A DNA stretch of 64,000 nt from Tahibacter sp. (lineage in GTDB: Bacteria; Pseudomonadota; Gammaproteobacteria; Xanthomonadales; Rhodanobacteraceae): assembly GCF_035481375.1 (NCBI RefSeq), contig NZ_DATIGT010000191.1, forward strand, positions 260 through 64,259, read 5' to 3'. The translations under genes and the position numbers were made by a program. Under the pieces are notes generated by a model, which made no database searches, was not told the DNA's origin, and was given only the letters and a program-made list of their open reading frames with translations. Position 1 is the stretch's first letter. Each line of letters starts with the position of its first letter. Of the stretch, positions 12,559 to 39,185 are shown in pieces.

Positions 12559-13635
12559 TCACTCGTAGCCGTCGGTGAAGATCGTGTCGGTCACGACCGT
12601 CGTGCGGTTGCAGTCGTAGGTCTCGCCGATGCGCGCGCCGGTGTCGAGCACCTGGAAGTCGGTGACCATCACGTCCTGAGCACCGGCGGTCTGGTCGAAC
12701 TCGCGCGAGTCGATCCCGAGCTCGGCCCAGGTATGCGTGGTGTAGCGGTCGCTTTCCGCGGTCAGCGCGATGTTGCCGCCGTCGGCGAGCACGATGCCGT
12801 AGCGCTGCATCGTGCGCAGGATCACCTGCGCGGCCGGCGAATAGTTCGTCATCGGAAAATCCGCGCGCAGCCGCAGGCGCGAGCCGTAGGCCACGCTGCC
12901 GGTCGGACCGGTGGGACTGCCCGCATGCGTGGCCGGGCGCACGTAGAGATAGCCGTTGCTGCCGCCGAGCGACGCGTCGTTGGCCATGCGCGCATTCGGC
13001 AGGATGAAGCGGATCGCATGGCCGAGATCGCCGCCGGTCTGCATCGCCGCGAACACCTCGTCCGCATTGAACAGCAGCGGCGCGATCGGGAAGCCTGCCG
13101 CATCCGCGCTCGTGCAGTGATCGCCGCGGCCCTGCGCCGGATAGATCGCCTTCAGGTGCCATTTGACGAGGCACTGCGATTCGATGCCGTTCACGCCGCT
13201 CGCGGTCACGTGATAGGCCTCGTACAAAGTGTCGCCCTGCACGACGAGCAGATGGCAGTCCTCGCTCGCGTTCGTGCAGGTCATGCCCGCGGTGCTCTCG
13301 ATCGCGGCATTCGCCGGTACCGGCATGATCGATCCGATCGGCTCGCAGTCGGGACTGTAGTAGTCGTCATAGGGATAGCCGACGATCGTGCGCGTCGGAC
13401 TGCCGGCCGCGGCCGGCACGATGTGCATGCCGAAGTCGATCTGCATGCGGCCGAAGCCGAAACCGCCGAGGCCGTTCAAGGTCGAGATCATCGTGGCCGA
13501 CTGCGGGTGCACGGGCGCGGCCGAGATCTCGCGATGCCAGACCGAGCCCGGCGGAAAGCGCGGCGGCGGCGCGGCCATGGCTGCGGCCGAAGCGATCGTG
13601 GCGGCGAGCAGGCCACCGGTGAGCTGAGGTTTCAT
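12559..13635 (-). CDS. Exported hypothetical protein (358 aa), no domain recognised
   Basis: Signal peptide MKPQLTGGLLAATIASAAAMAAPP. RBS AAGGAA. High GC3. Ends in ...TDTIFTDGYE (shared C-terminal tail, see findings). Confidence 0.7.
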   Translation of the reverse strand: MKPQLTGGLLAATIASAAAMAAPPPRFPPGSVWHREISAAPVHPQSATMISTLNGLGGFGFGRMQIDFGMHIVPAAAGSPTRTIVGYPYDDYYSPDCEPIGSIMPVPANAAIESTAGMTCTNASEDCHLLVVQGDTLYEAYHVTASGVNGIESQCLVKWHLKAIYPAQGRGDHCTSADAAGFPIAPLLFNADEVFAAMQTGGDLGHAIRFILPNARMANDASLGGSNGYLYVRPATHAGSPTGPTGSVAYGSRLRLRADFPMTNYSPAAQVILRTMQRYGIVLADGGNIALTAESDRYTTHTWAELGIDSREFDQTAGAQDVMVTDFQVLDTGARIGETYDCNRTTVVTDTIFTDGYE

Positions 13636-13734
13636 GGGATGTTCCTTGCGGACCCGGAGAGGAGATTACTGCGCGCGCCGCGGGCCATCAGAGACGATGC
13701 GCCCGGAATGCCGATACAGAACGTGTGCGGGCGT

Positions 13735-16700
13735 TCACGGTGACACCGCCTGGAAGCCGTTGCCGAAGATGCGGTCGCCGGGCAGCCCCACGCCGTGCAG
13801 CGGCAGCGGAGCGGGCGGGTCGGACGAATCCGATGCGACGCCGAGCCGGCCGCTGCGATAGCCGTGGCCGGTCGGCGCGAAGCGGACCGGTTGCGTACAG
13901 CTTGCGCCGACCGCGAGCGTCGTGCCGCAGGTGCCTGCGGCCAGGGTGAATTCCGGCGCGCCGTCGAGGCCGAACGCGATGCCGGACAGCGTCGCGGTGC
14001 CGCGATTGGTCAGCGTGACGTCCAGTGCCGGCGCCGTGCCGATCGCCTGGTTGCCGAAATCCAGTTGTGAACTGTCGAGCACGGCAAGCCCACGCAGCGG
14101 CGGCGTGATGCCGGCCTCGATGCGCAGCACGCCGCCGGCGTCGGCCTGCCACGGCCCGCCGGGCTGCAGCGTCAGCAGCTGGAAGTCGGCGCCCGTGCTG
14201 CGCACGAGCTGGAAGGCCGCGAACGGCTGCAGCCCGGTGACGAGGTGCTGCGTGACCGCGAGCGGCAGGCGCAGCGCGAAGCACGCGCGGAACGGCGCGA
14301 CGTCGCGTGCGAACCACAGGCTGGTCGTGCCGGCGATCGCGCCGTCGAATGCGCCGGCCGGCGTCGCGCAGCCGCCTGTGGCTTCGGAGGCGACGGCAGC
14401 GGCGGCATCCGGCGCGGTCGTCCCCGTGGTCCCCTGCAGCACGTGCAGGAAGCGCGTCTGCAGCGGCGCGCCGTCGGCTTCCACGCGCAGACGCGTCGCG
14501 AATTTCTGCGTGCCGCCCGCGATGGTGCGTTCCTGGACGAAGCTGTCTTCGTCGCCGAGCGCCCAGCCGTTGACGTCGGGCGACATGATCGGATCGTCGG
14601 TCACGATGGACAGCGTGCGTGCGGCAGGCAGCAGGCTCGCCACATGCAGGCGCTGGCCGCCCGGCGTCGCCGAGACGACGCGGTTGCCGGCGAGCTGCGG
14701 CACGGCGGGCAGCTGGTCCGGCAGATTGAGCCAGAAGCGCTTCGCGCGCTGCGCCGTGGCCGACTGCACGCGGTCGTAGACGGCGATGTGATCGGGCTTG
14801 AGCCAGAGCACGGCGCGGCTGACGTGCTGCACGTCGAGCGCGCGCTGCGCGGCCGGCGTCGAGTCGCCGGGCTCGTAGTACGCGTTGTACAGGTTTGTAG
14901 AATCGCCGGCGACGAAGCTGTAGCGCGGCGTCTCGCTGCGCGCGAGCACCTGCGGATCGGCCGCGCTTCGCGCCTGCGGCATCTGCGCGCCGCGGCGCAG
15001 GCGATTGCCGAGATAGCCGTTCGGATCGACCGACACGCCGAGCACGTTCTGCACGGTCACGCCGTTCTTGTAGTCGGTTGCGCCGCCGTCGTTGCCGTAG
15101 CCGATCGTGGCCTTGGTCAGCCACTCGCCGTTGCGGTAGAACTCGAACAGATTGCCGTCGCCGTGCTGATGGTCGACCGCGTTGTAGCTCAGCCGATAGG
15201 TAAGCCAGCGCGCATCGGCGCCCCAGTCCGTGCGCGAGAGCAGGCGGCCCATGCCGTCGGACCAGAACGACAGCGCGAGCGACGGCCGCGGGTCGGGCGC
15301 CGTCGCCGCGCTGCCCGGCGCGGCCGGATCGAACAGCAGGAAATACAGGAGGCTCGACAGCACGTCGCCGCTGCTGCCGCTGGCGCGCGTGCGCGAGACG
15401 AAGCCCGCGGCGCCGTTCGGCGGCAGGTGACGCTGCACCCAGCGGATCAGATCGGCCGTCGCCGTGTCGCCGACGCGCATCGCGTGCAGGCCGACCGGGC
15501 CGAGGATGTCGATCGGATCGTTCTGGTAGTACTGCTCGCCGTCGCCGTACCAGGCGGGCTTGTAGACCGTGCCGAACGCGCTGGGCGCCGTGCGCGGGCT
15601 CTGCGAATGCACGAGGCCATGGGCGATCGCGCGGTAGAACGGATTCGTCGCGAGACCGGCGACCTGCGCGCCCCATTCGCCCTGGCCGGCGAGATCGGCA
15701 TAGCCCGCGGTTTCCAGGCCGTAGAGAAGCTGCGCCGGAATGCCGATCGAGGTCGGCGCGTATTCCATGCCTTCCTGCGGCAGCCCGCCGCGGCTGTCGT
15801 GGCGCAGCAGATAGTCCTGCACGAACAGCCATCCCTGCAGCACGTCGCGACGCAGGCCGCGCAGCGCGCCGGGCGCGGCGTCGAGCGGAACCACGACGGC
15901 CTGGCCGTTCGCGTTGAGGCGCAGATAGCTCGTCGGCGTCTGCGCATCGGGCACGTCGTCGGCGGCGTCGATCGCGATCGCGCGCAGACCGATGTTGCGC
16001 ATGTGCCCCGCAAAATAGTTGTTGCCCGCAAAGCGCAGGCGATGCCGGCGCAGGTCGGTGGTCAGGCGCAGCAGCGGCTCGCCGATCGTGCCGACCGGAA
16101 GGCTGAATTCCGGCGGGTTGTTGTAGGGATTCGGATAGGCCTCGAGACTCAGCCGCGACCAGATCAGGAACACGCGGCGCAGCGTCGCCTTGTCCTGCGC
16201 ACCGAGCACCGCCTGGCCGCCCGCGGTCGTCGCGCCCTGCAGCCAGTCGGCCGCGAGCGGAAACGCCGCGCCGGTCCAGCGCGAACGATCCGACACGCTG
16301 AAGGACAGCGCGCAGAAACTGCCCTGCTGCGTCGGCGGCGAGGCGCGCATGCACGCGTCGACGCGATCGATCACGTGCATGAGCAAGGTGCGTCCGCGCT
16401 GCGCCCACTGCGCGCGCGCGGCGGCATCGGGATCGACGAGGCTCATGAACGCGAACAGCGCGGCGTATTCCTCGGTGTTGACCGGGCTCCAGGTGGAACC
16501 GCCGTTGTCGTCGCCCGGAATGTCGCCGCGATCCATCGCCTGCGCCGAGGAGAGCGCGAGCTGCCGCAGGCCGTTCGCATAGACCGGATTTCCGCCGGCC
16601 GCCCACTGTCGCAACTGCGGCAGGTCCGCCGCGGCTATCCAGAGGCGCGGATGCGTCGCCAGTGGTTCGGTTCGACCCTGGCCGGCCGCCAGCACGCCGA

Positions 16701-16737
16701 AGGCCAGCACCAGCAGATAACCCAGCACGCGTTTCAT
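13735..16737 (-). CDS. Exported heparinase II/III-like (polysaccharide-lyase-like) protein with a C-terminal choice-of-anchor-D-like domain
   Basis: I start at Met7 (MKRVLGYLLVLAFGVLAAG) behind the strong RBS AAGGGAGG. The N-terminal HPRLWI... region and DHQHGDGNLFEFYRNGEWL...GYGNDGG resemble the Hepar_II_III fold. The C-terminal LDFGNQAIGT...LTNRGTATL...CGTTLAVGASCT..FAP resembles choice-of-anchor D. Ends in ...GDRIFGNGFQAVSP. Confidence 0.6.
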   Translation of the reverse strand: MKRVLGYLLVLAFGVLAAGQGRTEPLATHPRLWIAAADLPQLRQWAAGGNPVYANGLRQLALSSAQAMDRGDIPGDDNGGSTWSPVNTEEYAALFAFMSLVDPDAAARAQWAQRGRTLLMHVIDRVDACMRASPPTQQGSFCALSFSVSDRSRWTGAAFPLAADWLQGATTAGGQAVLGAQDKATLRRVFLIWSRLSLEAYPNPYNNPPEFSLPVGTIGEPLLRLTTDLRRHRLRFAGNNYFAGHMRNIGLRAIAIDAADDVPDAQTPTSYLRLNANGQAVVVPLDAAPGALRGLRRDVLQGWLFVQDYLLRHDSRGGLPQEGMEYAPTSIGIPAQLLYGLETAGYADLAGQGEWGAQVAGLATNPFYRAIAHGLVHSQSPRTAPSAFGTVYKPAWYGDGEQYYQNDPIDILGPVGLHAMRVGDTATADLIRWVQRHLPPNGAAGFVSRTRASGSSGDVLSSLLYFLLFDPAAPGSAATAPDPRPSLALSFWSDGMGRLLSRTDWGADARWLTYRLSYNAVDHQHGDGNLFEFYRNGEWLTKATIGYGNDGGATDYKNGVTVQNVLGVSVDPNGYLGNRLRRGAQMPQARSAADPQVLARSETPRYSFVAGDSTNLYNAYYEPGDSTPAAQRALDVQHVSRAVLWLKPDHIAVYDRVQSATAQRAKRFWLNLPDQLPAVPQLAGNRVVSATPGGQRLHVASLLPAARTLSIVTDDPIMSPDVNGWALGDEDSFVQERTIAGGTQKFATRLRVEADGAPLQTRFLHVLQGTTGTTAPDAAAAVASEATGGCATPAGAFDGAIAGTTSLWFARDVAPFRACFALRLPLAVTQHLVTGLQPFAAFQLVRSTGADFQLLTLQPGGPWQADAGGVLRIEAGITPPLRGLAVLDSSQLDFGNQAIGTAPALDVTLTNRGTATLSGIAFGLDGAPEFTLAAGTCGTTLAVGASCTQPVRFAPTGHGYRSGRLGVASDSSDPPAPLPLHGVGLPGDRIFGNGFQAVSP

Positions 16738-16949
16738 GAAACCTCCCTTCAGCACGGAATCGACGCTCGCAGTTGCGCCGCGGCGTCGCGGCTTCCGCCA
16801 TCGGACCGACCGGCGGTCGTATCCGCGGCGCGAACGGCACGTCGCCGTTGGTCTGCCGCATCGAGCCGACGGACGGCAGCGCGTCGCGGCGGCGAGGGCA
16901 CATCGCTTGCAACGCGAGTGCGATGACTGTCGACAGGGGGAAGGCGGAA

Positions 16950-17495
16950 ATGGACGAGGATTTCCTGGCGCTGCTCGAGCGCTGCCGCAACGGCGAGGCG
17001 CACGCGCAGCACGCGCTGGCCGCGCTGGTCTATGCGGATCTCAAGCACATCGCGCGGCGCCATCTGAAGCGCGGCCGCTGGATCAACACGCTCGACACGA
17101 CCTCGCTGCTGCACGAGTCCTACCTGCGCCTGGGGAATGCCGCGGAGCTGCCGCTCGCCTCGCGCGCGCATCTGCTGAACGTGGCGTCCCGCGCGATGCG
17201 CCGCGTGGTCTGCGATCACGCGCGGCGCCGCCTGCGCCGGCAGGATCCGTTGCCGGTTCTGCTCGACGACGATGCCGCGCTGTTCGACGAGGCGCGCCGC
17301 ATCACGGCGCTCGACGACGCGCTGCGCGATCTCGCGCGCGTCGAGCCGCGGCAGGCGAGCGTCGTGGAATGCCGCTTCTTCACCGGGCTGTCGCTCAGCG
17401 AGACCGCGCTCGCGCTCGATGTTTCCGAGCGCACCGTCGAACGCGACTGGGCCGATGCGCGGCGCTGGCTCGCGATGCAGCTCGCGGCAGCCTGA
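16950..17495 (+). CDS. ECF-type RNA polymerase sigma factor (TIGR02999-like, kinase-associated type)
   Basis: MDEDFLALLERCRNGEAHAQHALAALVYADLKHIARRHL...; region 4 is VVECRFFTGLSLSETALALDVSERTVERDW. An alternative start is ATG 16923. A Ser/Thr kinase gene follows directly. Confidence 0.8.
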   Translation: MDEDFLALLERCRNGEAHAQHALAALVYADLKHIARRHLKRGRWINTLDTTSLLHESYLRLGNAAELPLASRAHLLNVASRAMRRVVCDHARRRLRRQDPLPVLLDDDAALFDEARRITALDDALRDLARVEPRQASVVECRFFTGLSLSETALALDVSERTVERDWADARRWLAMQLAAA

Positions 17496-17532
17496 GATTC
17501 GCTATGAAAGGCCGCTGCAGGGACGCCGCCGC

Positions 17533-19716
17533 TTGAACACTGCGTTCCTCGTCACGGGCGGCGCGCTGGCCGGCGCGCTCGCCGCCGATCTCCTCGCCGC
17601 GCACGAATTGCCGCCGCTCGCCGCCGGCGAGCGGCTCGGCCGGTTCGTGCTCGTTGCGGAAATCGGCCGCGGCGGCCACGGCGTGGTCTGGCGTGGCGAG
17701 CGTGACGACCGGACCTTCGCCCAGACCGTCGCGATCAAGGTCGTCAAGGCCGGCGCCGGCCTGCGCGCGCGCTTCCTGCGCGAGCGCGCGGTGCTCGGAC
17801 AATTGCACCATGTGCACATTGCGCGCATCGTCGACGCCGGCGAGCGCAGCGACGGGCTGCTGTGGTTCGCGATGGAGCACGTCGTCGGCGAACCCGCCGA
17901 CCGCCATGTCGCCGGACTGCGCGACTGGCGCCGCGGCATCGATGTACTGATCGCCGTCGCGCAGGCGGTCGAGCATGCGCATCGCCATCTCGTGGTCCAC
18001 GGCGACCTGACGCCGGGCAACATCCTGATCGCCGCCGACGGCATGCCGCGCCTGCTCGATTTCGGCATCGCACGCCGGCTCGACGACGCGGAATCCGGCG
18101 GCGACGTGCTGTTCACGCCGGGCTACGCGAGTCCGGAACAGCGCGCCGGTCGGGCGCTGACGACCGCGTCGGACGTCTATCAGCTCGGCCGGCTCGTGCA
18201 GCGCTGGCTGCTGGAAGGCCGCGGACCACAACCGCCGCGCTGGGCGCAGCGTCTGCTCGCGCCGGTCGTCGCGCGCGCGACGGCGGCGGAACCGGCGCGG
18301 CGCCATGCGGAAGTCAGCGCGCTGCGCGAAGACCTCGCGCTGATCCGCGCGGCGCGCGCACCGCGTCATGTGCCGTCGCCGCCGTCGCTGCGGCTGTCGC
18401 TGTTCCTGTGCCGGCACCGGCGCGCGGCGCTGCTCGGCGCCGTGCTCGTCGCGCTGTCGGGCGTGATCGCGGCGCAGCAGTGGGCGCACCATCGTTATGC
18501 GCGCGAGCGCCTGCTGCGCGACGCGCGCAGTTCGCGCGAAGTCAGCGCGTTCATGAGCAGTCTGTTCCGCGCCGCGAATCCGAACGACAACGGCGGCCGG
18601 CGCGTCGACGCCGAGGAAATCCTGCGCCGCGGCGCGGAACGCATCGCGCAGGATCTGTCCGGCCAGCCGCGCCTGAAGGCAGATCTGTCACTCGCGATGG
18701 CCGAAGCCTACCTGCAGCTCGGCCGGACCGAGGCCGCCGAACCTCTGCTGCTGCAGGCGCTGTCGCTGCGCATCGACGGCGATGCGGTCGCACTCGCGCG
18801 CACGCTCGAGGTCCAGGCGCTGCTGCGGCACCGCCAGGGCCGCTTCGGCGAAGCGCTGCAGGCGGCGGATGCGGGCATCGCCGCGGTCGCGCAGAGCGAC
18901 GACGTGCTGCTGCGCGCCGATCTCGGCAGCCGCCGCGGCAACGCGCTCAAGGCGCTGGGCCGGCTCGACGAAGCCGTCGCCGAATTCGATGCGTCGATCG
19001 CGCGGATCCGCACCGCCGGCAGCGACAGCGACGCGCTCGCGCGTCTGCACAACAACCGCGGGCTCGCGATGATGCAGGTCAGGCGCCTGCCGGCCGCGCG
19101 TGCGGATTTCGAACAGGCGCTCGCGATCTACGCGCAGCGCTACGGCGAGGACCATCCGCTGTGGAGCGGCGCGGCCTCGAACCTGAGCTGGGCGCTCGGC
19201 GAACTCCGGCAGTTCGACGCGGCGACGACGCTGATCCGCCGCCGGCTGCGGATTTCGGAACGGCTCTACGGCGCGCAGAGCGCGGAATTCGCGAACGACC
19301 TGAACGTGCTCGGCGGCATCCTCGGCGATCAGGCGCTGCGCCGCGAAGCGATTGCCGAATTCGAGCGTTCGGCGCGGATCTGGCGTGCCGCGCTCGGCCC
19401 CGATCATCCGGCGCCGCTGCATCCGCTGCACAACCTCGGGCGCCAGCGCCTGCTGCTCGGCGAGGCGCAGCGTGCCGCCGACCTGCTGGCCGAGGTCGAA
19501 GCGCAGCGCCTGCGCCTGATCGGCGCCGCGCATGCGGACACGGCCGACGTGCAGCTCGATCTCGGCGATGCGCTGCGCGCGCTCGGGCGCGAGCGCGATG
19601 CGCGCTCGGCTTATGCGCGGTCGCTCGCGGCATTCTCGGCGATCGCGCAGACGCCGCCGCAGCGCCTCGCGGAACTGCGTGCGCGGCTGGCGCCGTCCGC
19701 GCCGGCCGCGCACTGA
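17533..19716 (+). CDS. Hanks-type Ser/Thr protein kinase, single TM, C-terminal TPR region
   Basis: G-loop IGRGGHGVVW, VAIKVVK, catalytic loop HGDLTPGNILI (atypical), DFGIARRL, TPGYASPEQ. TM is AALLGAVLVALSGVIAAQ, followed by TPR-like repeats. The TTG 17533 start is inferred from where GC3 rises; the ORF track starts at 17272, inside the sigma gene. Confidence 0.8.
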   Translation: MNTAFLVTGGALAGALAADLLAAHELPPLAAGERLGRFVLVAEIGRGGHGVVWRGERDDRTFAQTVAIKVVKAGAGLRARFLRERAVLGQLHHVHIARIVDAGERSDGLLWFAMEHVVGEPADRHVAGLRDWRRGIDVLIAVAQAVEHAHRHLVVHGDLTPGNILIAADGMPRLLDFGIARRLDDAESGGDVLFTPGYASPEQRAGRALTTASDVYQLGRLVQRWLLEGRGPQPPRWAQRLLAPVVARATAAEPARRHAEVSALREDLALIRAARAPRHVPSPPSLRLSLFLCRHRRAALLGAVLVALSGVIAAQQWAHHRYARERLLRDARSSREVSAFMSSLFRAANPNDNGGRRVDAEEILRRGAERIAQDLSGQPRLKADLSLAMAEAYLQLGRTEAAEPLLLQALSLRIDGDAVALARTLEVQALLRHRQGRFGEALQAADAGIAAVAQSDDVLLRADLGSRRGNALKALGRLDEAVAEFDASIARIRTAGSDSDALARLHNNRGLAMMQVRRLPAARADFEQALAIYAQRYGEDHPLWSGAASNLSWALGELRQFDAATTLIRRRLRISERLYGAQSAEFANDLNVLGGILGDQALRREAIAEFERSARIWRAALGPDHPAPLHPLHNLGRQRLLLGEAQRAADLLAEVEAQRLRLIGAAHADTADVQLDLGDALRALGRERDARSAYARSLAAFSAIAQTPPQRLAELRARLAPSAPAAH

Positions 19717-19717
19717 C

Positions 19718-20746: not shown

Positions 20747-20852
20747 GACTAACCTCCAGAGTGACGAAGGCCGGACCGCATCGGGTTGCGGCGGCGGGGC
20801 AGCCGAACTGGGGCCGACCCGCGCCGATTCACTGCGACTTTGGTCGTGTCGC

Positions 20853-27153: not shown

Positions 27154-27178
27154 GTGTTGCGCGACACGTTCACGGCCG

Positions 27179-29172: not shown

Positions 29173-30792
29173 TCAGTCGAGCGTGCCGCGGAAGATGCGG
29201 TCCGACGCCTGCGCGAGCAGCAGCACCTGGCCGTAGGTCGCTACCGTTGCCGACACGAGCACGTTGCCGTCGGCGCCGATCCAGCGGTCGCGGCCGCGGC
29301 TGCTGTCGGAGCCGTAGCCGGGCAGGTCGAAGGTCGACACGGTGGCCTGCAGGTTGCCGGTCGTCGTTGCGACGGTGACGGCCTGGCCGGGTTCGAGCAG
29401 TTTGCGCGGCGCGCGGCCGGCTTCGAGTGCCCACAGCGCGTTGACGTCACCGGGGTTGGTGCGTGCTTCCACGACGATCGTGCCGTTCGCGAGCACGGCG
29501 CTGGCACCGAAGCTGACCCAGGTGCGGGTCGGCTCGGGCCCGTACTGGCCCGGAATGCCGATCAGCGCGACGAGTTCGGGGCGCTGTCCGGTGCGCACGC
29601 GCCAGAAACCGGTCGGATTGCCGCCGTCGGTAGTCTCCACGCGTGCGGTGAACGCGGCATAGGCACCGTTCGCGCTCAGCGTTTCCGGATTGAACGTGAG
29701 CCAGGTTGCGTCGATCCAGTTCGGGCCGTAGTAGCCCGTGGTATCGCGATAGGCCATCGGGCGGTTGCGCGAGCCGTCATGCCAGAACAGGCCGTATTCG
29801 CTCGAAGAGCCGCTGGTGCGGCGGAAATAATTGAAAAAGTACAATTGGTTCGGAAGTCCGGGCTGGGCCGCTTCGAAGTCGTTGCTGAACGTCGCCGTGG
29901 CGATGCCGATGTCGGGGCCGCGCGCGCCGGTCTCGTCGTCGACGGCGACCGCGCGCGGATTGCCGGCGCAGATTTCCCAGATGCCGCCGCGCGAGCCGGT
30001 CGCGTCGAACACGCCGTAGACGCGGCCCTCGCGCGTGACGCTGACGCTGTCGGTCAGGGTCCAGCCGGTGTGGAACGAGTCGCCGGCGGCGAGGCCCGGT
30101 GCGAGCGCGGCTTCGGTCGCGCCGGCGCGCAGGCAGGGGCGGTTGCCGGTGCCGGGCATGTGCCTGACGATCGCGCGGCCGCTCGCGTTGGTCGGACTCA
30201 GCAGGTCGGCGTCGAGCACGACGTTGCCGCCGTTCATCGCCCGGCCGACCGCAAAGCCCGAGGCGTCGGCGAAACGCCAGCCCGCGCCGAGGCCCGGGCC
30301 GAGTACGGCGTCGGTCTGTGCGCGTGCGATCTCGACATTGCGCGTGCCGTCCCAGCGCCAGATACCGTAGCTGTTGTTCGTGCTCGAACCGGGTTCGCCG
30401 GCACGGCCGGCAAACACGCGCTGGCCGTCGGGTGCCGAGGCGCCGTCGCCCGAGACGATGTTCTGGAATACGTGGCCGGCCTCGGCGCCTTGGCGGCCCG
30501 GGCCGCGCACGCCGGTGACGCCGAGTTCGGTGTAGCGCACGAATGTGCCGGGCGTGCGCGCCCAATAGCCGGCGAGGCTGTCGGGGCTGGTCACGCGCAG
30601 GCCGACGAGCTCGCCGCCGGCGTCGCCGAGGATGGCGTCGGTCAGGCTGCGGCCGGTGCCGTTGGGCATGCCGGTCGTGACGACGCGGCTGTCTTCGCCG
30701 GCGACGACGCGCCAGGCGGCGGTCTGCGCGGGGACGAGCGGCGCGTAGACCAGGGCCGCGGCGAGCGCGGCTCCAATTTTCAGGTTCGACAT
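29173..30792 (-). CDS. Exported tandem-repeat protein (NxxGxxAF/DUF7453-like propeller-type repeats)
   Basis: I start at Met27 (MSNLKIGAALAAALVYAPLVPAQ) behind RBS GGAGAG. There are about 6 repeats, each with an N/D-G-x-hydrophobic strand and a G-hydrophobic-W turn (GIWRWDG, GIWEICAG, GLFWHDG, GFWRVRTG, ALWALEAG). Ends in ...SDRIFRGTLD. Confidence 0.65.
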   Translation of the reverse strand: MSNLKIGAALAAALVYAPLVPAQTAAWRVVAGEDSRVVTTGMPNGTGRSLTDAILGDAGGELVGLRVTSPDSLAGYWARTPGTFVRYTELGVTGVRGPGRQGAEAGHVFQNIVSGDGASAPDGQRVFAGRAGEPGSSTNNSYGIWRWDGTRNVEIARAQTDAVLGPGLGAGWRFADASGFAVGRAMNGGNVVLDADLLSPTNASGRAIVRHMPGTGNRPCLRAGATEAALAPGLAAGDSFHTGWTLTDSVSVTREGRVYGVFDATGSRGGIWEICAGNPRAVAVDDETGARGPDIGIATATFSNDFEAAQPGLPNQLYFFNYFRRTSGSSSEYGLFWHDGSRNRPMAYRDTTGYYGPNWIDATWLTFNPETLSANGAYAAFTARVETTDGGNPTGFWRVRTGQRPELVALIGIPGQYGPEPTRTWVSFGASAVLANGTIVVEARTNPGDVNALWALEAGRAPRKLLEPGQAVTVATTTGNLQATVSTFDLPGYGSDSSRGRDRWIGADGNVLVSATVATYGQVLLLAQASDRIFRGTLD

Positions 30793-30930
30793 GGGTTCTC
30801 TCCGGATCTCAGGCGGGCCTGCGCCGCGGTCCGTGTTGTTCGGCTGACGTTTCCGTGCGTTCGCGTTCATGCGATAGGCCGGCGCAGGCGACCCATGCTA
30901 GGGTTCACGACGGATTTCGTAGGCACGGAT

Positions 30931-30963
30931 GGATAACGGCGCGGTAACGGATGGGTAACGCCG
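30931..30963. promoter_or_regulatory. Three direct repeats with exact 11-bp phasing (GGATAACGGCG / CGGTAACGGAT / GGGTAACGCCG)
   Basis: TAACG starts at 30934, 30945 and 30956. It lies in the divergent intergenic region, about 70-100 bp upstream of the wHTH-kinase ATG (31031). It is a candidate binding array for an OmpR-type winged helix. Confidence 0.4.
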
Positions 30964-31030
30964 CGCTGCGCGGCGATTTTTTCGCCGCCGGAAGCGATTC
31001 CCGGCCGCCGGCGCCGCGCCTTCAGCACGC

Positions 31031-33754
31031 ATGAAGATCGACAACGACACGCCGGAACGGCCCTCCTATTCCTATCGCTTCGGCACGGCCGAGTTCGACG
31101 AGGCGCGCTTCGAGCTGCGCGTGGCCGGCCTGCCGGTCGACGTCGAGCGGCGCGCGCTCGAAGTGCTGCTTTATCTGCTCCGCCACGCGGGCGAGGTCGT
31201 CACGAAGGACGAATTGCTGCGCGAGGTCTGGGCCGGGCGCATTACGGTCGACAAGGTGTTGCCGAACGCGATCAACAAGCTGCGCCGTGCGCTCGGCGAG
31301 GCGAACGCGGAGCGCGTGCAGACCCAGGCACGCATCGGCTATCGGCTCGACGGCGCGATCGAGCGCATCGCGGTCGGCCGCCGGCTCACGAGCCGCATCG
31401 ATCTGTCGGCGGGCCAGCCCGTGCCCGGCCGCGACAATTTCCTGTTGCGCCGCCAGCTCGGCAGCAACCGCGGCAGCGAGGTCTGGCTGGCCGAGCACGC
31501 GAAGACGCGCGAGAAGCGCGTCTACAAGTTCGGCACCGACGGCGAGCGGCTGCGCTCGCTCAAGCGCGAAGCGACGCTCGCGCGCGTGCTGCAGGAAAGC
31601 CTCGACGACCGCACCCATTTCGTCGACATCATCGACTGGAACTTCGAAAGCCCGCCGTTCTTCCTGGAATGCCAGTTCGGCGGCGACAGTCTGCTCGACT
31701 GGTCCGAGCGGCATCTGGCGGCGCTGTCGGTCGAAGAACGCGTCGCACTGTTCCTGCAGATCGCCGATGCGGTAGCCGCGGCGCACGCGGTCGGCGTGCT
31801 GCACAAGGATCTCAAGCCCGCGAACGTGCTGATCGCGCCGGCGGAGCCGGGCTGGCTGATCCGCCTGACCGACTTCGGCAGCGGCCGGCTGCTCGACCCG
31901 GAGCGGCTGGAGTCGCTCGGCATCACGCAGCTCGGCCTCACGGTGACGCAGAGCATCGCGACCGATTCGTCGGCGGGCACGCCGCTCTACGTCGCGCCGG
32001 AAGTGTTCGCCGGCCACGCGCCGACCGTGCAGAGCGACGTGTTCGCGCTCGGCATCCTGCTGTATCAGCTGCTGGCGGGCCGCCTGAACAAGCCGATGGT
32101 GTCGGGCTGGGAGCAGGACGTCGCCGACGAACTGCTGCGCGAGGATGTGCGGCTGGCGACCGACGGCAATCCCGAGCGGCGTCTGGCGAGCGTCGCGGAA
32201 CTCGCCGCGCGGCTGCGCGACCGCGAGCCGCGTCGCCTGCGCAACGAACGCGTCCGCCGCGACGAAGCGCAGGCGCGCAGCGCGAATGAATCGCTCGCAC
32301 GCAGCCGTGCGCGGCGGCCTTACCTGGTTGCGCTGATCGTCGCGCTCGCGGCGAGCGTCGTCGTCGTGCTCGGCCTCTACGGTGCCGCGCTGCGCGCGCG
32401 CAACGACGCGCAGCGGGAACTCGACCGCGCCACGGCGATCAACCGGTTTCTCAACGAAGACCTGATCGGCCGGTCCAATCCGCTCGTCGTCGCGAAAGGG
32501 CAGAGCGCGTCGCTGAAGGATGTGCTGCTCGCGGCGCGCGAACGCGTCTCGCGGCGCTTCGGCGCGCAGCCGCAGACCGAAGCGTCGATCCGCATGAGCC
32601 TCGTGACGCTGTTCAACATGCTCGAGCTGCTGCCCGAAGCCGAGGACGAGGCGCGCCGCGCGCTCGCGCTGTATGAAAGCAGCGAAGGTGCGGCGAGCCG
32701 CAACGCGCTCAAGGCGCGCACCTTCGTCGCGCGCATGCTTGCGCGCACCGGCAAGTTCGACGCCGCGCTGAAGGAACTCCAGACGATGGACGCGCTGATC
32801 GCGAACGACGGCGACGACTATGCGAAATACCTGCGCGGTTCGGCCTGGAGCGTCTATCTGATGAACCAGGGCGAGTACGCCAAGGGCGTCGCGGAGTTGC
32901 GCATCGCGATCCCGATCGCGCGCAGGTTCGAGCCCGACAACGTCACGCAGCGCGATTCGATGCGCATGGACCTGATCAATGGCCTGACGCAGACCGGCGA
33001 TCTGGCCGGTGCGCGTGCCGAAGGCGCGGCGCTGATCGCGGAAGTCGGCGCGCGCGACGACGATAACGGACTCGTCATCGCGTTCGCGAAGGCCGCCGTC
33101 GCGCGCACCTATACGATGGAAGGCGATCTCGCGACCGCCGAAGCGCAGCTCGTCGAGGCGCAGGAGACCATCGTCACGCGGCTCGGCGCGGGACATATGC
33201 GCAACATCATGGTGCTCAGCGATCTGTTCGATATCGCGATGCGCCGCGCCGAGTGGCCCAGGGCGCTCGACTACGCGCAGCGCGTGCACGAAGGCGCGCT
33301 CGCGAAGTTCGGGCCGGAGCACAACATCACGGCCGTCACGGCCATCAACTGGGGCCAGGCGCTGTTCGAGAGCGGAGACGCCGCGGCCGCCGACGGCAAA
33401 CTGCGGCCGTTCCAGCAGCGTCTCGTCGCCCAGCTCGGCGAGAAGAACCCGCAAAGCCAGATGTCGATCTACTGGCTGGCCGCGATCGCGCTGGAGCGGC
33501 GGCGAACCGACGAAGCCGCGCGTCTCGTGGCGGTGCTGGATCCGGCCGCGCTGGAAGCCGCCGGCGCCGACGGGTTCTGGAAACTGCGCGTCGATGCGCT
33601 GCGAGGGCTCGTCGCCGTACAGCGCGGCGACCGTGCGACCGCCGCGCCGCTGCTCGCCGCGGCGGTGGACGGCCTGGCCAAGGCCGACGGCGGCGGCCGC
33701 AGCCGCGTGTATGCGAATGCGGAGCGGGAGCGGGGCCAGGTCGGCGTCAAGTGA
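31031..33754 (+). CDS. Fusion protein: OmpR/CadC-type winged-helix DNA-binding domain + Hanks Ser/Thr kinase + TM + TPR region
   Basis: The N-terminus YRFGTAEFDEARFELRVAGLPVDVERRALEVLLYLLRHAGEVVTKDELLREVWAGR...IGYRL is a trans_reg_C fold. Kinase motifs: VYKF, HKDLKPANVLI, DFGSG, GTPLYVAPEV. TM is YLVALIVALAASVVVVLGLYGAAL, followed by TPR-like repeats. Confidence 0.85.
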   Translation: MKIDNDTPERPSYSYRFGTAEFDEARFELRVAGLPVDVERRALEVLLYLLRHAGEVVTKDELLREVWAGRITVDKVLPNAINKLRRALGEANAERVQTQARIGYRLDGAIERIAVGRRLTSRIDLSAGQPVPGRDNFLLRRQLGSNRGSEVWLAEHAKTREKRVYKFGTDGERLRSLKREATLARVLQESLDDRTHFVDIIDWNFESPPFFLECQFGGDSLLDWSERHLAALSVEERVALFLQIADAVAAAHAVGVLHKDLKPANVLIAPAEPGWLIRLTDFGSGRLLDPERLESLGITQLGLTVTQSIATDSSAGTPLYVAPEVFAGHAPTVQSDVFALGILLYQLLAGRLNKPMVSGWEQDVADELLREDVRLATDGNPERRLASVAELAARLRDREPRRLRNERVRRDEAQARSANESLARSRARRPYLVALIVALAASVVVVLGLYGAALRARNDAQRELDRATAINRFLNEDLIGRSNPLVVAKGQSASLKDVLLAARERVSRRFGAQPQTEASIRMSLVTLFNMLELLPEAEDEARRALALYESSEGAASRNALKARTFVARMLARTGKFDAALKELQTMDALIANDGDDYAKYLRGSAWSVYLMNQGEYAKGVAELRIAIPIARRFEPDNVTQRDSMRMDLINGLTQTGDLAGARAEGAALIAEVGARDDDNGLVIAFAKAAVARTYTMEGDLATAEAQLVEAQETIVTRLGAGHMRNIMVLSDLFDIAMRRAEWPRALDYAQRVHEGALAKFGPEHNITAVTAINWGQALFESGDAAAADGKLRPFQQRLVAQLGEKNPQSQMSIYWLAAIALERRRTDEAARLVAVLDPAALEAAGADGFWKLRVDALRGLVAVQRGDRATAAPLLAAAVDGLAKADGGGRSRVYANAERERGQVGVK

Positions 33755-33765
33755 ACCGGACCCCG

Positions 33766-34539: not shown

Positions 34540-34619
34540 GGCGATGTCCGTCGGAGGCGTCGCCGGAGTCTGTGGCAGCGTCGCGCCGGCGGCAACCGGC
34601 ACGGGCCGCCCGCCGCTGT

Positions 34620-34943
34620 TCAGCGCCGGTTCGTCAGTGCGTAGTAGGCGAGATTGCCGACGCCGACGGCCGCGGCGATCACCGCGATCGCGCCGGGCGT
34701 GATGTCGTTCCAGCCGAACAGCTGGATCAGCGCGAAGCCCGCGGCCAGCGCGAGCAGCGTGATGCCGGAACGCAGCGAGGCATATCGGCGCTGCAGCGCC
34801 TCGCCGTCGAGAATCGACCGGATCAGCTCGTCCGAACTGCCGGCGCGCATCATCAGAATCCGCAGGCGCGCGTCGATGAGCAGCTTGACGACGTACGTGA
34901 TGCAGCCGAACAGGGCGATCGGTATCAGGAACTGCGTGGACAT
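34620..34943 (-). CDS. Small membrane protein (107 aa)
   Basis: I start at Met10 (MSTQFLIPIALFGCITYVV) behind RBS GGAGAA. Three hydrophobic segments. High GC3. Confidence 0.55.
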   Translation of the reverse strand: MSTQFLIPIALFGCITYVVKLLIDARLRILMMRAGSSDELIRSILDGEALQRRYASLRSGITLLALAAGFALIQLFGWNDITPGAIAVIAAAVGVGNLAYYALTNRR

Positions 34944-35124
34944 GGGGTTCTCCGCTAGCCGTCGGCGCAACGGCCGGTCGCGGGCTATGGATACGTGTGC
35001 GGGCGGGGCGGTTGCAAGAGCATCGGCAAGAACCCGACGTGAGCAGGTAGCAACCAGAGAGGCACGTCAACGCCTTCTCCGGTTGCCACCCCCTTCCCTC
35101 CATTTCCTCGTTTCGCGACGGCGC

Positions 35125-35149
35125 TGCAACCGCCGTCGCGGTTTCCGTA
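35125..35149 (+). promoter_or_regulatory. Candidate autoregulated ECF promoter TGCAAC-N15-CGTA
   Basis: Read directly 26 nt upstream of GTG 35175, with GGAG at 35163-35166. It is close to the classical ECF TGAAAC-N16-CGTA architecture. Confidence 0.3.
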
Positions 35150-35174
35150 TCTTGCGGCGCATGGAGCGATCTTC

Positions 35175-35741
35175 GTGACGAACCCGGACCGCGTGCTGGT
35201 CGATGCCGTGCTCGCGCGGCGCGCGGGCGCGTTCGAGCGTCTGGTCGCCGATCACCAGGGACTGTGCTGGCACATCATCCAGCGGCTCGTGCGGCATCCG
35301 GAAGATACGCGCGAGCTGTGCCAGGAAGCGTTCCTGCGCGTGCACCAGTACCTGCATCAGTTCCGCTACGAAAGCACCTTGAAATCGTGGATCGGCCGCG
35401 TCGCATACGCCGTCGCGCTGCGGCACCTGGAAAAGAAGCAGGTGCCGCTCGTCGATGCGGCCGACGACGGCGAGTACGACCCGTATCTGCAGGAGGGCGA
35501 CGGCTTCGATCTGGAGTCGGCCTGGGCCGATGCGGAACTGCGCGATCATCTGCGCGCGGCGATCGATGCGCTGCCGCCGTTGCCGCGCATGCTGCTGACG
35601 CTGTATCACCTCGACGAACTGACGATTCCGGAGATCGTGCAGGTCAGCGGATTGCCGGCCGGCACGATCAAGAGCCACCTGTTTCGCAGCCGTCTGCGCC
35701 TGCGCGAGCGGCTGCAGGCCCGCCTCGGAGAGACCGCATGA
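35175..35741 (+). CDS. ECF-type RNA polymerase sigma factor
   Basis: GTG start. Region 2 is ELCQEAFLRVHQYLHQFRYESTLKSWIGRVAYAVAL. Region 4 is MLLTLYHLDELTIPEIVQVSGLPAGTIKSHLFRSR. Confidence 0.88.
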   Translation: MTNPDRVLVDAVLARRAGAFERLVADHQGLCWHIIQRLVRHPEDTRELCQEAFLRVHQYLHQFRYESTLKSWIGRVAYAVALRHLEKKQVPLVDAADDGEYDPYLQEGDGFDLESAWADAELRDHLRAAIDALPPLPRMLLTLYHLDELTIPEIVQVSGLPAGTIKSHLFRSRLRLRERLQARLGETA

Positions 35742-36157
35742 AGACCGATCCGATCGTGTCGCCGGCACAGCAGACGGAATGGCTGCGGCAGGAGCAGGCA
35801 TTCGACGCCGAGCGCGGTGCGGCCGGTACGGAAGCACCTGCCTCGTACCGCCTGATCGCCCGGGCGCTGCGCGAACCCCTGCCGGTCGACCTGCCGGCGG
35901 ATTTCGCCACGCGTGTCGCGCGCCGCGCCGAGACCGCCGCGCTGCTCGATCCGCGCTGGGAGCGGCGCGGCATCGCCGTCCTGCTGGGCACGCTCGCCGT
36001 GCTCGCCGGCGCCGGGCTGCTGCTCGAAGGCGCCAGCTGGCTCGCGGATCTGCAGGCCGCACTGCCGTCGTTGCCGCGGATCCTCAATGGCTGGACCCTG
36101 CTGCTGCTCGCCGGGCTCGCCGCGGCACAGCTGCCGGTGCGGCGACCCCTGCGCTGA
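35738..36157 (+). CDS. Putative membrane-anchored anti-sigma factor (139 aa)
   Basis: ATGA overlap with the sigma stop. Cytoplasmic N-terminus, then two hydrophobic segments (GIAVLLGTLAVLAGAGLLL, WTLLLLAGLAAAQL). The assignment rests on position only. Confidence 0.5.
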   Translation: MKTDPIVSPAQQTEWLRQEQAFDAERGAAGTEAPASYRLIARALREPLPVDLPADFATRVARRAETAALLDPRWERRGIAVLLGTLAVLAGAGLLLEGASWLADLQAALPSLPRILNGWTLLLLAGLAAAQLPVRRPLR

Positions 36158-36308
36158 GTCGCTTCCAGACATAATCGTCCGCGGAACTATGCAAATCGGT
36201 CATTAGGGCCGTGAGTTTCGGCCTATGAGTCCGTCCGCACTACGCCTTAGGATCGAGATCTCTGCGGCCTGCGTCCGGCGGGCGGCATGACGTATCGGGG
36301 AGATTCGT

Positions 36309-39185
36309 ATGCATAAGTCGTTCAGCGACTGGCGCGCGTGGGGAGCGTTCGCCGGTCTGGTGCTGCTTCCGCTCGCACCGGCCTCGGCCTGGCACCGCCA
36401 GGCCAAACACATCGACAAGCTGGCCGAAAGCGAGATCGGCCACGCGCCCGGTCAGCCGCGCGAGGAGTCCTGGCAGATCGAACAGCGCCAGTTGTGGTTC
36501 GAGCGCACGCGCGCCCTGCGCGACAACCCGGACGCGGGGCGCGAGCGCGCTGCGGCCGTGGAGACGCTGAAGCAACTGCGCCGCAGCAAGGACCCGCAAC
36601 AGGAGGCGCTCGGCGAATCCTGGGCGCCGGTCGGCCCGTCGTCGATGACGATGACCGACTGGATCATGGGCCGCGTCGCCGGGCGTCTGAACGCCGTGAC
36701 GCCGGTGCCGGGCAACGAGGATACGGTCTACATCGGCAGCGCCGCCGGCGGCGTCTGGAAGACCACGAACGCGGGCGCGAGCTGGACACCGATCTTCGAC
36801 CAGGTCGGCACGCTGCCGATCGGCGCGGTGACGCTCGATCCGAACAACACGAACGTGGTCTGGGTCGGCACCGGCGACAAGAACGGCGGCGGCTGCGCCG
36901 GCTATTTCGGCCAGGGCGTGTTCCTCAGCGAAGACGCCGGCGCGACCTGGAATGCGCGCAACGGCAGCGGCCCGACCGCCATGCCGCTGTCCATCGTCAA
37001 CGCGGTCGCCGTGCAGCCGACCGACAGCAACGTGATCCTCGCCGGCGGCGCGGGCACCTGCGCGGGCGGTTCGCTGTCGGGCGCCGGCGTGTTCCGCTCG
37101 GCCGACCGCGGTCTGACCTGGACGCGCGTGCTCAGCACGAACGTCGAGGACATCGTGTTCGTGCCGGGCACGAACATCGCCTATACGGGCCTCATCAACA
37201 CCGGCGTGTCGAAGTCGGTCGACGGCGGCGCGACCTGGACGCCGATGAACACCGGCCTCAACCCGGCCGGCTCGCGCATGCGCCTGACGATGTCGCCGAG
37301 CGACAGCAATACGCTGTACGCGCTGGTCGGCGACCGTCTCTACCGCACGATCGACGGCGGCCTGAACTGGTCGCAGACCAACGCCGACGCCTGCGAAGGG
37401 CAGTGCGGCTACAACCTGACGGTCGCCGTGCATCCGACCGACGCCTCGACGGTACTCGTCGGCACGATCCGCCACGCGCGTTCCACCAACGGCGGCGCGA
37501 CGCTGACCGCGATGACGAGCACCTGGGGCACGTCGCAGAAAGTGCATCAGGACACGCACGTCGTGCGCTATTCGACGACGAATCCGAACCGCTTCTGGGT
37601 CGGCACGGACGGCGGCCTCTGGCGCACCGACGACGGCGGTCTGTCGTACGTCAACATGAATTCGAATCTGAACATCATGCAGTTCTACGACATCGCCGTG
37701 CACCCGAACGACGTCAACATCGTGTTCGGCGGCGCGCAGGACAACGGGTCGTCGGGACGCCGCACGAGCCTGCAGTGGGGCCTGACCTTCGCGAGCGGCG
37801 ACGGCTTCATGAACGTGGTCGATCCGACCACGCCGTCGCGCGTGTTCCAGACCAGCTATCCGCAGAGCAACATGCCGACGATCGTGCGCTCGAATGCGAG
37901 CGGCAGCCTCGGCAGCTTCGAGCTCGTGCCGCGCACGGGCCTCGTCGCGTCGTCGCAGTTCCCGTGGGTCACGCCGCTCGCGGCCGCCGGCAATCAGCTG
38001 TTCGTCGCGTCGAACACGCTGTACCGCACGACGACCGACGGCAATTCGTGGACCGCGGTGTCGCCGAACATGGGCAGCGCGTCGTCGGTGATCACGCCGC
38101 AGATGATCGGCGTGCTGATGCCGACCTACGTCGGCACCTCGGGCGGCCGCATCTACTTCAGCGCCGACGCATCGGTGCCCTCGCCGACGTTCGCGAACGT
38201 GACCGGCGACTATCCGGGCGGCATCGTCTCTGACGTCGCGATGGACCCGACCAACGCACAGCGCGTCTTCATCACGCGCGCGGGCTTCGGCAATTCGCGC
38301 CTCTACCGCTCGACCACCGGGGGCACGGCGTGGACCGCGGTCGGCACCGGCCTGCCGAACGTGCCGGCGAACAGCGTCGCGGTCGATCCGCTGAACACGA
38401 ACCGGATCTTCGTCGGCACCGACATCGGCGTGTATGAAAGTACCGACGGCGGCGACAACTTCACGGCGTTCTCGGCCGGCCTGCCGCTGGGCCTCGTCGT
38501 GCAGGATCTGGAAATCGACGACACGCCGCACGTGCTGACGGCCGGCAGCTACAGCCGCGGCGCCTGGCGCGTCGTACTGAGCACGAGTGCGACGAACGCG
38601 CCGCCGACGCCGGACTTCTCGGCGACGGTCAACGATCTGACGGCTGCGTTCACGAGCAGCGCGATCGACTTCGACGGCACGATCGCAACGACGAGCTGGA
38701 ACTTCGGCGACGGCAGCCCGGCGTCGACGCAGCCGAATCCGACGCACACCTACGCGACCTACGGCGCGAAGACGGTCGTCCTGACCGTGACCGACGACGA
38801 CGGCGCGAGCGCGAGCTTCTCGCGCGTCGTGCGCCTGTTCGCGCCGCCGGTTCCGCTGAGCAACGGCGTGACCGTGTCGGGCCAGAGCGCGCCGCAGAAC
38901 GACGAGTTGCGCTATTCGCTGCAGGTGCCGGTCGGTGCGACGAATCTGAGTTTCGTGACGACCGGCGCGGCCGGCGAAGACGCCGATCTCAGCGTGATTC
39001 TCAACGGCGAAACGCTCTGCGAATCCGCCGGCGCCACGGCGGACGAGACCTGCAACATTCCGAATCCGCCGCCGGCCGGCAATTATCTGGTGATCGTGCT
39101 GGCCTATTCGGCGCTGAGCAATCAGTCGATCACGGGCAGCTATTCGATGGCCGATCTGATCTTCCGCAACGGGTTCGAGCCGTAA
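36309..39185 (+). CDS. Exported BNR/Asp-box repeat (sortilin/VPS10-like) protein with PKD and pre-peptidase C-terminal (PPC) domains
   Basis: Signal-like N-terminus. About nine Asp-boxes (SEDAGATW, SADRGLTW, SVDGGATW, TIDGGLNW, STTGGTAW, STDGGDNF...). PKD is WNFGDGSPASTQPNPTHTYATYGAKTVVLTVTDDDGAS. PPC-like is GEDADLSVILNGE...AGNYLVIVLAYS. Ends in ...ADLIFRNGFEP. Confidence 0.85.
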   Translation: MHKSFSDWRAWGAFAGLVLLPLAPASAWHRQAKHIDKLAESEIGHAPGQPREESWQIEQRQLWFERTRALRDNPDAGRERAAAVETLKQLRRSKDPQQEALGESWAPVGPSSMTMTDWIMGRVAGRLNAVTPVPGNEDTVYIGSAAGGVWKTTNAGASWTPIFDQVGTLPIGAVTLDPNNTNVVWVGTGDKNGGGCAGYFGQGVFLSEDAGATWNARNGSGPTAMPLSIVNAVAVQPTDSNVILAGGAGTCAGGSLSGAGVFRSADRGLTWTRVLSTNVEDIVFVPGTNIAYTGLINTGVSKSVDGGATWTPMNTGLNPAGSRMRLTMSPSDSNTLYALVGDRLYRTIDGGLNWSQTNADACEGQCGYNLTVAVHPTDASTVLVGTIRHARSTNGGATLTAMTSTWGTSQKVHQDTHVVRYSTTNPNRFWVGTDGGLWRTDDGGLSYVNMNSNLNIMQFYDIAVHPNDVNIVFGGAQDNGSSGRRTSLQWGLTFASGDGFMNVVDPTTPSRVFQTSYPQSNMPTIVRSNASGSLGSFELVPRTGLVASSQFPWVTPLAAAGNQLFVASNTLYRTTTDGNSWTAVSPNMGSASSVITPQMIGVLMPTYVGTSGGRIYFSADASVPSPTFANVTGDYPGGIVSDVAMDPTNAQRVFITRAGFGNSRLYRSTTGGTAWTAVGTGLPNVPANSVAVDPLNTNRIFVGTDIGVYESTDGGDNFTAFSAGLPLGLVVQDLEIDDTPHVLTAGSYSRGAWRVVLSTSATNAPPTPDFSATVNDLTAAFTSSAIDFDGTIATTSWNFGDGSPASTQPNPTHTYATYGAKTVVLTVTDDDGASASFSRVVRLFAPPVPLSNGVTVSGQSAPQNDELRYSLQVPVGATNLSFVTTGAAGEDADLSVILNGETLCESAGATADETCNIPNPPPAGNYLVIVLAYSALSNQSITGSYSMADLIFRNGFEP

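Follow-up and report, generated by a model that had tools for sequence, protein, structure and literature searches.

A stretch of 64 kb of DNA (the window; 66-73% G+C) from a Tahibacter-like member of the Rhodanobacteraceae encodes four exported proteins that end in copies of one short peptide module, here called the tail. The core of the module is D-x-[IL]-F-x-[DN]-G-[FY]-[ED], with the stop 0-4 residues later. The invariant-type positions are the F, the G, the F/Y and the acidic residue, together with the D two residues before the I/L. Comparison of homologues indicates that the tail is kept by selection and is pinned to the C-terminus. The tail is widespread in several phyla, outside the curated families that were searched, and may well serve as a tag that is read in trans after export.

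The tails in the window

The four C-termini had been claimed in an earlier note on this DNA and were all confirmed by translation:

12559-12588, minus strand: tail of the 12559 gene, ...VTDTIFTDGYE-stop
13735-13776, minus strand: tail of the 13735 gene, ...GDRIFGNGFQAVSP-stop, with the end D-R-I-F-G-N-G-F-Q-A-V-S-P-stop
29173-29202, minus strand: tail of the 29173 gene, ...SDRIFRGTLD-stop, a decayed D-R-I-F-R-G-T-L-D-stop
39153-39185, plus strand: tail of the 36309 gene, ...ADLIFRNGFEP-stop, with the end D-L-I-F-R-N-G-F-E-P-stop

The proteins that carry them are:

12559..13635, minus strand: exported 358-aa protein, fold without known match (translation)
13735..16737, minus strand: exported 1000-aa protein with a weak heparinase-like region and choice-of-anchor D (translation)
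29173..30792, minus strand: exported 539-aa beta-propeller protein (translation, Foldseek)
36309..39185, plus strand: exported 958-aa protein with a BNR/sortilin propeller, a PKD and a PPC-like domain (translation, Pfam)

The signal peptides that the note had ascribed to all four proteins are Sec-type as read from the sequence, and the four architectures differ as it had stated, with no domain in common. The remaining exported proteins of the window do lack the tail; the TonB receptor ends classically in ...LTLRAGF-stop.

A six-frame scan of all 64 kb with the pattern F..G[FYW][EQD] gave three matches only, each of them 0-4 codons ahead of the stop in open reading frames (ORFs) of 358-1006 codons. 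Among the 40 ORFs of the window supported by G+C content at third codon positions, [ILVM]F..G[FYW][EQD] is found three times at the C-terminus and not once internally. The expectation for the C-terminal motif from residue shuffles is 0.0018, and three or more matches were obtained in none of 5000 shuffles. The window tails are far beyond chance. A cause at the DNA level (a repeat, a terminator or a recombination site at the gene ends) was rejected, as the four genes have unrelated DNA downstream and a search there gave no terminator-like sites. The similarity of the tails therefore resides at the protein level.

Conservation of the tail

The tail is conserved in orthologues from three families, with variable linker and x positions. 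The overall identity of the aligned 358-aa and propeller sequences is only 45-80%, and the position of the stop is conserved.

The 358-aa protein belongs to a family of more than 5,400 homologues, the closest named relatives being Tahibacter species; conservation of the tail was seen in about 60 homologues. Three kinds of ending follow the conserved core end ETYDCVRT. The first is the short ending of the window type, [ILV]FxDG[FYLH]E-stop, which in 32 aligned members lies about 13-15 residues past ETYDCVRT. The second is a 19-residue ending, LFADGFESG(D/N)TSAWSxxVP-stop. The third consists of extra domains, either two Calx-beta domains or another region, rich in Pro/Arg at its end. Tail lengths past the acidic position are +0, +1, +2, +3, +4, +6 and +12. 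The column information in this family is about 3-3.9 bits in the motif and 1.6-2.6 bits in the linker.

In the propeller family all of the approximately 100 full-length homologues, from Tahibacter, Dokdonella, other Rhodanobacteraceae and Xanthomonadales bins (44-78% identical), end in D(R/K/L)IFxxGF(D/E)(G/P/R)-stop. The window propeller and its nearest relatives have decayed tails (SDRIFRATQE, SDRIFRDGLE) that keep D-R-I-F and the terminal acid. The RGTLD ending, which the earlier note had listed as its weakest match, is shown by the tailed homologues to be a true, decayed copy. The motif columns again hold about 3-3.9 bits; the linker has 1.2-3.3 bits and overlaps more. An 87-residue protein encoded near a propeller-family gene (L247:11692-11955) ends in ...ERIFCNGFEG-stop, so that even very small proteins can have the tail.

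The five closest homologues of the C-terminal part of the 958-aa protein all end in [IL]FxxGF[ED](P/Q)-stop. One of the five, P0125, has a different N-terminal part, of the PQQ type, and has kept the tail. The PPC domain (PF04151) is recorded for the homologues P0121, P0122 and P0124 only, not for the window protein itself. When the C-terminal parts of the 13735 and 36309 proteins were used as tblastn queries, no match turned up in any of the fetched loci.

AlphaFold2 (AF2) models built on the family alignments have a mean predicted local distance difference test (pLDDT) score of 81 for the 358-aa protein and 91 for the propeller. Residues 353-358 of the former and 534-539 of the latter score below 50. 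The final strand of the propeller stops at residue 528, 11 residues short of the C-terminus. The tail as a part of the fold, that is as a propeller 'velcro' or a docked strand, was rejected because of this low confidence and because the last strand ends before the tail. In the two proteins modelled, the tail is predicted to be a flexible appendage and not a closing strand.

Occurrence in other genomes and metagenomes

Species genomes were scanned with a DNA pattern for F-x-D-G-F-E, which gave at least 120 loci. Among the matches listed that have at least 100 open codons upstream, the stop follows within 17 codons in 24 of 94 and after exactly 12 codons in 11. The 11 are all similar to FADGFESGDTSAWSxxVP-stop; their sources among the matches listed are Thermoanaerobaculia or Acidobacteriota (eight), a Deltaproteobacteria bin (one) and Multivoradales (one). 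The Gemmatimonadota locus in the sample is not a tail match. Short ends among the matches listed were found in Aquimonas (Xanthomonadales) and a few others. An internal copy of the same hexapeptide in the housekeeping enzyme ProA served as a control.

Metagenomes were scanned with a DNA pattern for I-F-x-N-G-F-D (120 loci). The stop follows within 0-4 codons in 49 of the 82 matches with at least 100 open codons upstream. Counted over all 120 matches, it is found at 0 codons in 21, at 1 in 19 and at 2 in 9. In a background control on viral contigs the matches were mostly in non-coding frames, and 8 of 120 lay at most 5 codons from a stop. By a crude rule, which overlooks several evident signal peptides, at least 27 of the 43 metagenomic carriers have one. 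The carriers are exported proteins of diverse structure, among them S8 protease with MAM, glucose/sorbosone dehydrogenase (GSDH), FG-GAP, beta-helix, multihaem cytochrome, CarboxypepD_reg repeats, matrixin with cadherin-like domains, delta-60 propeller and PQQ propeller. A loose pattern found one C-terminal copy per ORF in all but one of 73 scan ORFs, a few of which are chance matches and not tails; the second match in the exception, VFDNDLD, is chance-like. Choice-of-anchor Q is found immediately ahead of the tail in metagenomic proteins. Beta-helix proteins make up many of the short-tail carriers (L250, L324, L342, L351 and others); in these the choice-of-anchor Q region ends in ...DIGAFE and D-x-IFxNGFD-stop comes 5-10 residues further on.

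The tail peptides matched no model in Pfam or NCBIfam at E<=10. A full-text literature search for the motif strings gave nothing relevant, and a search on 'choice-of-anchor' gave no paper on such a tail.

Three further loci or groups were noted in the scans. At L126:8-7429, from a Thermoanaerobaculia metagenome-assembled genome, three adjoining genes with the 19-residue tail are followed by a gene for a PF07638-like extracytoplasmic function (ECF) sigma factor. On the viral contig L051 there is a genuine long tail, FSDGFEDGTTSEWSRTTP-stop. The phage proteins of one group (L031, L039, L055, L087, L102) end in ...ESDFGDGFEDDEDDDF-stop, a different and strongly acidic tail that has the hexapeptide alone in common.

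The long tail and its origin

The long tail comprises 19 residues, [ILV]F-A-D-G-F-E-S-G-D-T-S-A-W-S-x-x-V-P-stop. Most cases are in Acidobacteriota, and other lineages have single ones. A profile of its 19 positions was searched against 1.84 billion representative proteins and found 3,718 at E<=1e-3. Within the best 150 of these, 100 have a copy that ends at most 16 residues from the C-terminus, and 88 occurrences end exactly 12 residues past F-E, a peak that is partly circular since the terminal V-P is part of the profile. About 48 others of the best 150 have one to five internal copies, approximately 190-290 residues apart. Each internal copy begins a repeated jelly-roll domain with a weak match to the N-terminal positions of CBM_4_9 and Polysacc_lyase (PF14099). 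The long tail is therefore an orphan copy of the beta-strand with which concanavalin-like jelly-roll domains (CBM_4_9, PF14099, MAM-type) begin, and the window tail is a shortened form of it, corresponding to its first 7-9 residues.

The long tail behaves like a module in having its own ending, x-x-V-P-stop. Tandem orphan copies with no jelly-roll domain between them are found in P0347, P0349, P0355 and P0376. Those of P0355 lie near the N-terminus of an S8 protease. The string also occurs in other positions: L323 has an N-terminal copy right after the signal peptide, L303 and L307 have copies between domains, and in L359 a MAM-like domain with its own first strand comes after the short motif.

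Comparison with known C-terminal signals

Seven criteria for small C-terminal protein-sorting signals have been given by Haft (bioRxiv 10.1101/2023.06.07.544157), and five of the seven describe the tail: position, several copies per genome, a signature motif, signal peptides and unrelated carriers. The several copies are the four on one 64 kb stretch and those of the three adjacent genes in L126. The other two criteria are a membrane-spanning hydrophobic segment and a terminal basic cluster. The tail has no hydrophobic stretch, the protein ending 0-4 residues past the motif (12 in the long form), and its end is acidic, or Gly or Pro, with no basic cluster. The tail is thus, as the earlier note had it, not like PEP-CTERM, LPXTG or GlyGly-CTERM, lacking both membrane helix and basic cluster, and it is far shorter than the C-terminal domain of type IX secretion systems (T9SS). 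It lies outside the tripartite sorting-signal class, the T9SS domain and the outer-membrane beta-signal.

The tripartite signals (LPXTG/sortase, PEP-CTERM/exosortase, GlyGly-CTERM/rhombosortase and MYXO-CTERM/myxosortase) resemble the tail in being found at the extreme C-terminus, in several copies per genome, on unrelated carriers with signal peptides, with a short signature of invariant residues and directly after choice-of-anchor domains. The tail differs from them in that it lacks the hydrophobic segment and the Arg/Lys cluster, has only 9-19 residues and has no candidate intramembrane protease or transpeptidase; copies of it are also internal and N-terminal. The choice-of-anchor families are named for the differing C-terminal anchors that they carry in different lineages, and the T9SS domain is one of the anchors alternating on the same families.

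The T9SS C-terminal domain is, like the tail, a helix-free C-terminal signal on secreted or surface proteins. It is a folded beta-sandwich of roughly 70-100 residues, whereas the tail is a peptide of 9-19 residues, predicted to be disordered, in Xanthomonadales and Acidobacteriota. These two groups are not known to use T9SS. None of the T9SS C-terminal sorting-domain models matched the four window proteins. The sole T9SS-related match was a sub-threshold one to PorZ (12.5 bits against a cut-off of 260 bits) in an internal stretch of the 958-aa protein. The tail itself spans 9-14 residues here, with pLDDT below 50 in the two models.

The first strand of the jelly-roll domains (CBM_4_9 PF02018, Polysacc_lyase PF14099, MAM-type) has the sequence of the tail, [ILV]F-x-D-G-F-E-x-G-x-x-x-x-W. 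Unlike that strand, the tail is not followed by a domain; it closes with an x-x-V-P-stop of its own or, in the window type, just past the acidic residue, and can be repeated in tandem. No complete jelly-roll domain, which would take roughly 180-290 residues, is found behind the motif in the window proteins, which stop 0-4 residues later.

Short aromatic C-terminal motifs on exported proteins are also known from the Y-x-F ends recognized by DegS and from the beta-signal of the BAM complex. The ends of outer-membrane proteins are read by an envelope protein (DegS), and this is linked to ECF sigma signalling. These motifs have an aromatic last residue and are found on beta-barrel proteins. The tail instead ends in an acidic residue, sometimes with a few residues more, and is found on soluble domains. 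In the proteins studied here the tails end in E, D, P or G and the carriers are soluble propeller, Ig-like and other domains; the true beta-signal in the window is the ...RAGF-stop of the TonB receptor. Donor-strand complementation (chaperone-usher pili, and the exchange of C-terminal strands in type V pili) offers an analogy only, with a terminal orphan beta-strand able to complete the fold of another protein. For the tail, unlike in those systems, no acceptor with a missing first strand was identified.

Interpretation of the tail

We put at about even the chances that something reads the tail in trans, as a tag for the sorting, retention or secretion recognition of extracellular or surface proteins. 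The tail would then be a module that is not part of the fold of the protein carrying it, maintained by selection since something reads it after export, possibly an envelope partner that binds it as an added beta-strand. A sorting, retention or secretion role would be the most likely one because in choice-of-anchor families the tail sits where homologues appear to have a PEP-CTERM, T9SS or LPXTG anchor. In the 13735 protein, choice_anch_D (NF012200) spans residues 882-979, immediately ahead of the tail, and the propeller protein has a weak match to the NxxGxxAF choice-of-anchor repeat. A way of working like that of exosortase or sortase would not be possible, because the tail has no membrane helix and those signals pass via a membrane-anchored intermediate. 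To our knowledge this holds for all known small C-terminal sorting signals. The earlier note had suggested a sorting, processing or recognition tag; of this idea, a selected and transferable tag at the C-terminus is supported.

Several observations weigh against a tag read in trans. No partner protein was found, and an all-against-all comparison of the ORFs at 20 tail loci found no recurrent neighbour or processing enzyme. The 0-12 residues past the acidic position make a strict free-carboxylate reader unlikely. Some members of the 358-aa family lack the tail or have a decayed form (P0035), and the tails are decayed in the clade nearest to the window propeller gene. The circular part of the 12-residue peak belongs here too. 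The same string is also a genuine strand of some domains and stands between domains or at mature N-termini, so the tail could be a structural or linker element and not exclusively a C-terminal signal. The localisation of the carriers is throughout that predicted from their sequences.

A wider proposal, towards which we lean less, is that the tail represents a new class of helix-free C-terminal tags for diderms. It would be an orphan strand derived from jelly-roll domains and present on thousands of exported proteins, in Xanthomonadales and Acidobacteriota and probably in further soil lineages. An envelope receptor would read it through strand addition for sorting, retention or secretion; periplasmic tetratricopeptide repeat (TPR) kinases, too, might read it and so gauge the secretion load. 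A conserved, helix-free element of 9-19 residues at the extreme C-terminus, in the anchor position and in several phyla, gives a concrete handle on how soluble proteins of diderms are selected at the sequence level for secretion (e.g. type II secretion) or surface retention. It would also improve the annotation of many hypothetical exported proteins from soil metagenomes.

Alternative explanations

A somewhat unlikely alternative is that the tail acts in cis, as a linker or maturation boundary inherited from a C-terminal domain, of jelly-roll or PPC type, that was lost or can be removed. It would then cap or protect the C-terminus or mark a cut site, with no dedicated reader and no sorting. 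The long tail corresponds to the first 19 residues of a jelly-roll domain that has about 180-290 residues and that is itself often C-terminal in its protein, which fits such a boundary, as do the graded tail lengths from +0 to +12 in the 358-aa family, the region of 115-213 residues that follows the short motif in L288, L303, L307 and L359, and the dispensability of the tail in some relatives. However, a neutral remnant is not expected to hold about 3-3.9 bits per motif column at 45% identity, and neither the fixed stop position nor tandem duplication nor the spread over so many unrelated families would be expected of it. The domain downstream in L359 has its own first strand, so the short motif there is a separate module. 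A protective cap, finally, needs neither two conserved aromatic residues nor a conserved Gly. The earlier note had named a linker remnant as its own alternative. The string at mature N-termini and between domains and the origin shared with the jelly-roll strand agree with this, but a functionless remnant is contradicted by the conservation. Even with no more than a boundary or capping function, the tail would remain useful as a marker of where domains end and of an orphan jelly-roll strand that is widespread.

Distinctly less probable is a role of the tails as ligands of the extracytoplasmic TPRs of membrane Ser/Thr kinases that control an ECF sigma factor or a fused winged helix-turn-helix (wHTH) domain. 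The cell would in this way sense exported or accumulating tailed proteins, as DegS senses the C-termini of outer-membrane proteins. TPR domains bind acidic C-terminal peptides such as EEVD. The regulators in question, with the repeat described below, are:

16773..19716, plus strand: ECF sigma factor of the PF07638 type (ORF 16773-17495), then a Ser/Thr kinase with membrane helix and TPR (to 19716, start not fixed) (Pfam)
30932..30960, minus strand: triple direct repeat CGTTACC-N4-CGTTACC-N4-CGTTATC (intergenic alignment, 8 loci)
31031..33754, plus strand: regulator with wHTH (Trans_reg_C), Ser/Thr kinase, one membrane helix and extracytoplasmic TPR (Pfam; helix 427-456)
35175..36157, plus strand: ECF sigma factor (35175-35741) and a small one-helix protein, putative anti-sigma factor (end 36157, start not fixed) (Pfam, hydrophobic segment)

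Pfam and a membrane-helix check gave the regulator architectures that the earlier note had described. In each of the two kinases a single membrane helix (in the first, residues 383-405 of the 17272 ORF) precedes the TPRs, which would place these in the periplasm. The first pair is divergent from the 13735/12559 operon; a PF07638-type ECF sigma factor directly upstream of a Ser/Thr kinase with periplasmic TPR is an arrangement associated with phosphorylation-controlled ECF sigma factors. The ECF/anti-sigma pair is upstream of the 36309 gene, and no such neighbour is found by its relative P0124 in L371. In T. aquaticus the orthologue of the 12559 gene lies between the same two aldo-keto reductase genes, with neither the ECF/kinase pair nor the heparinase-like gene; compared with that species, these look like an insertion. 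That each tail locus has its own signalling module is consequently not supported as a rule, and of the 12559, 29173 and 36309 genes only the 29173 gene has a conserved partner.

For that gene the wHTH-kinase-TPR gene is divergently placed in 8 of 10 loci (window, L246, L368, L369, L370, L372, L373 and L374; identities down to about 45%) although the remaining flanking genes differ, which is in favour of the ligand role. It is absent beside the propeller gene in L245 and L247, and the propeller gene of L247 has a canonical tail with no kinase neighbour. A Ser/Thr kinase, PF07638-type ECF sigma or TPR gene lies within 8 kb of 4 of 20 tail loci and 2 of 100 others in the genome sample, a contrast that is suggestive but confounded by taxonomy, the tail-rich phyla being also rich in ECF sigma factors and kinases. 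The three tail genes of L126 followed by an ECF sigma gene point the same way. Most tail-bearing genes sampled elsewhere have no such regulator as a neighbour, and the tailed proteins encoded away from any such gene are very many. The variable extension past the acidic residue also fits a carboxylate clamp poorly.

The triple direct repeat in the promoter region shared by the propeller and regulator genes fits plain transcriptional control. It is unique in the window and was matched in 0 of 100 shuffles. Direct repeats spaced by about 11 bp are typical of OmpR/PhoB-type wHTH sites, and the repeat is likely, from its sequence, to be a wHTH binding site or operator. Its conservation in the shared intergenic region suggests control of the propeller promoter by the kinase-regulator as the simplest reading, for which the tail is not required.

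Chance or an annotation or assembly artefact can be given practically no weight: the motif is short and the RGTLD copy would be unrecognizable alone, but three matches were observed against 0.0018 expected, the tail is kept by about 100 homologues in one family and about 60 in another, and the same gene ends are found on independent contigs.

Further observations on the carrier genes

The start of the 13735 gene is most likely M7 (16737; 1000 aa), because a 1000-residue call exists on the source contig. That of the 29173 gene is most likely M27 (30792; 539 aa), giving a protein identical to P0241. Foldseek searches with the model of the 29173 protein gave propeller matches.

The 358-aa protein has no Pfam or NCBIfam match, and a Foldseek search of its model against the PDB gave none. 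An identical protein is encoded on a 96 kb soil-metagenome contig. The family has many invariant Cys, His and Asp residues and its AF2 model is confident. The label 'serine/threonine-protein kinase' given to relatives by the Joint Genome Institute looks wrong. In Tahibacter the gene is always flanked by the aldo-keto reductase genes.

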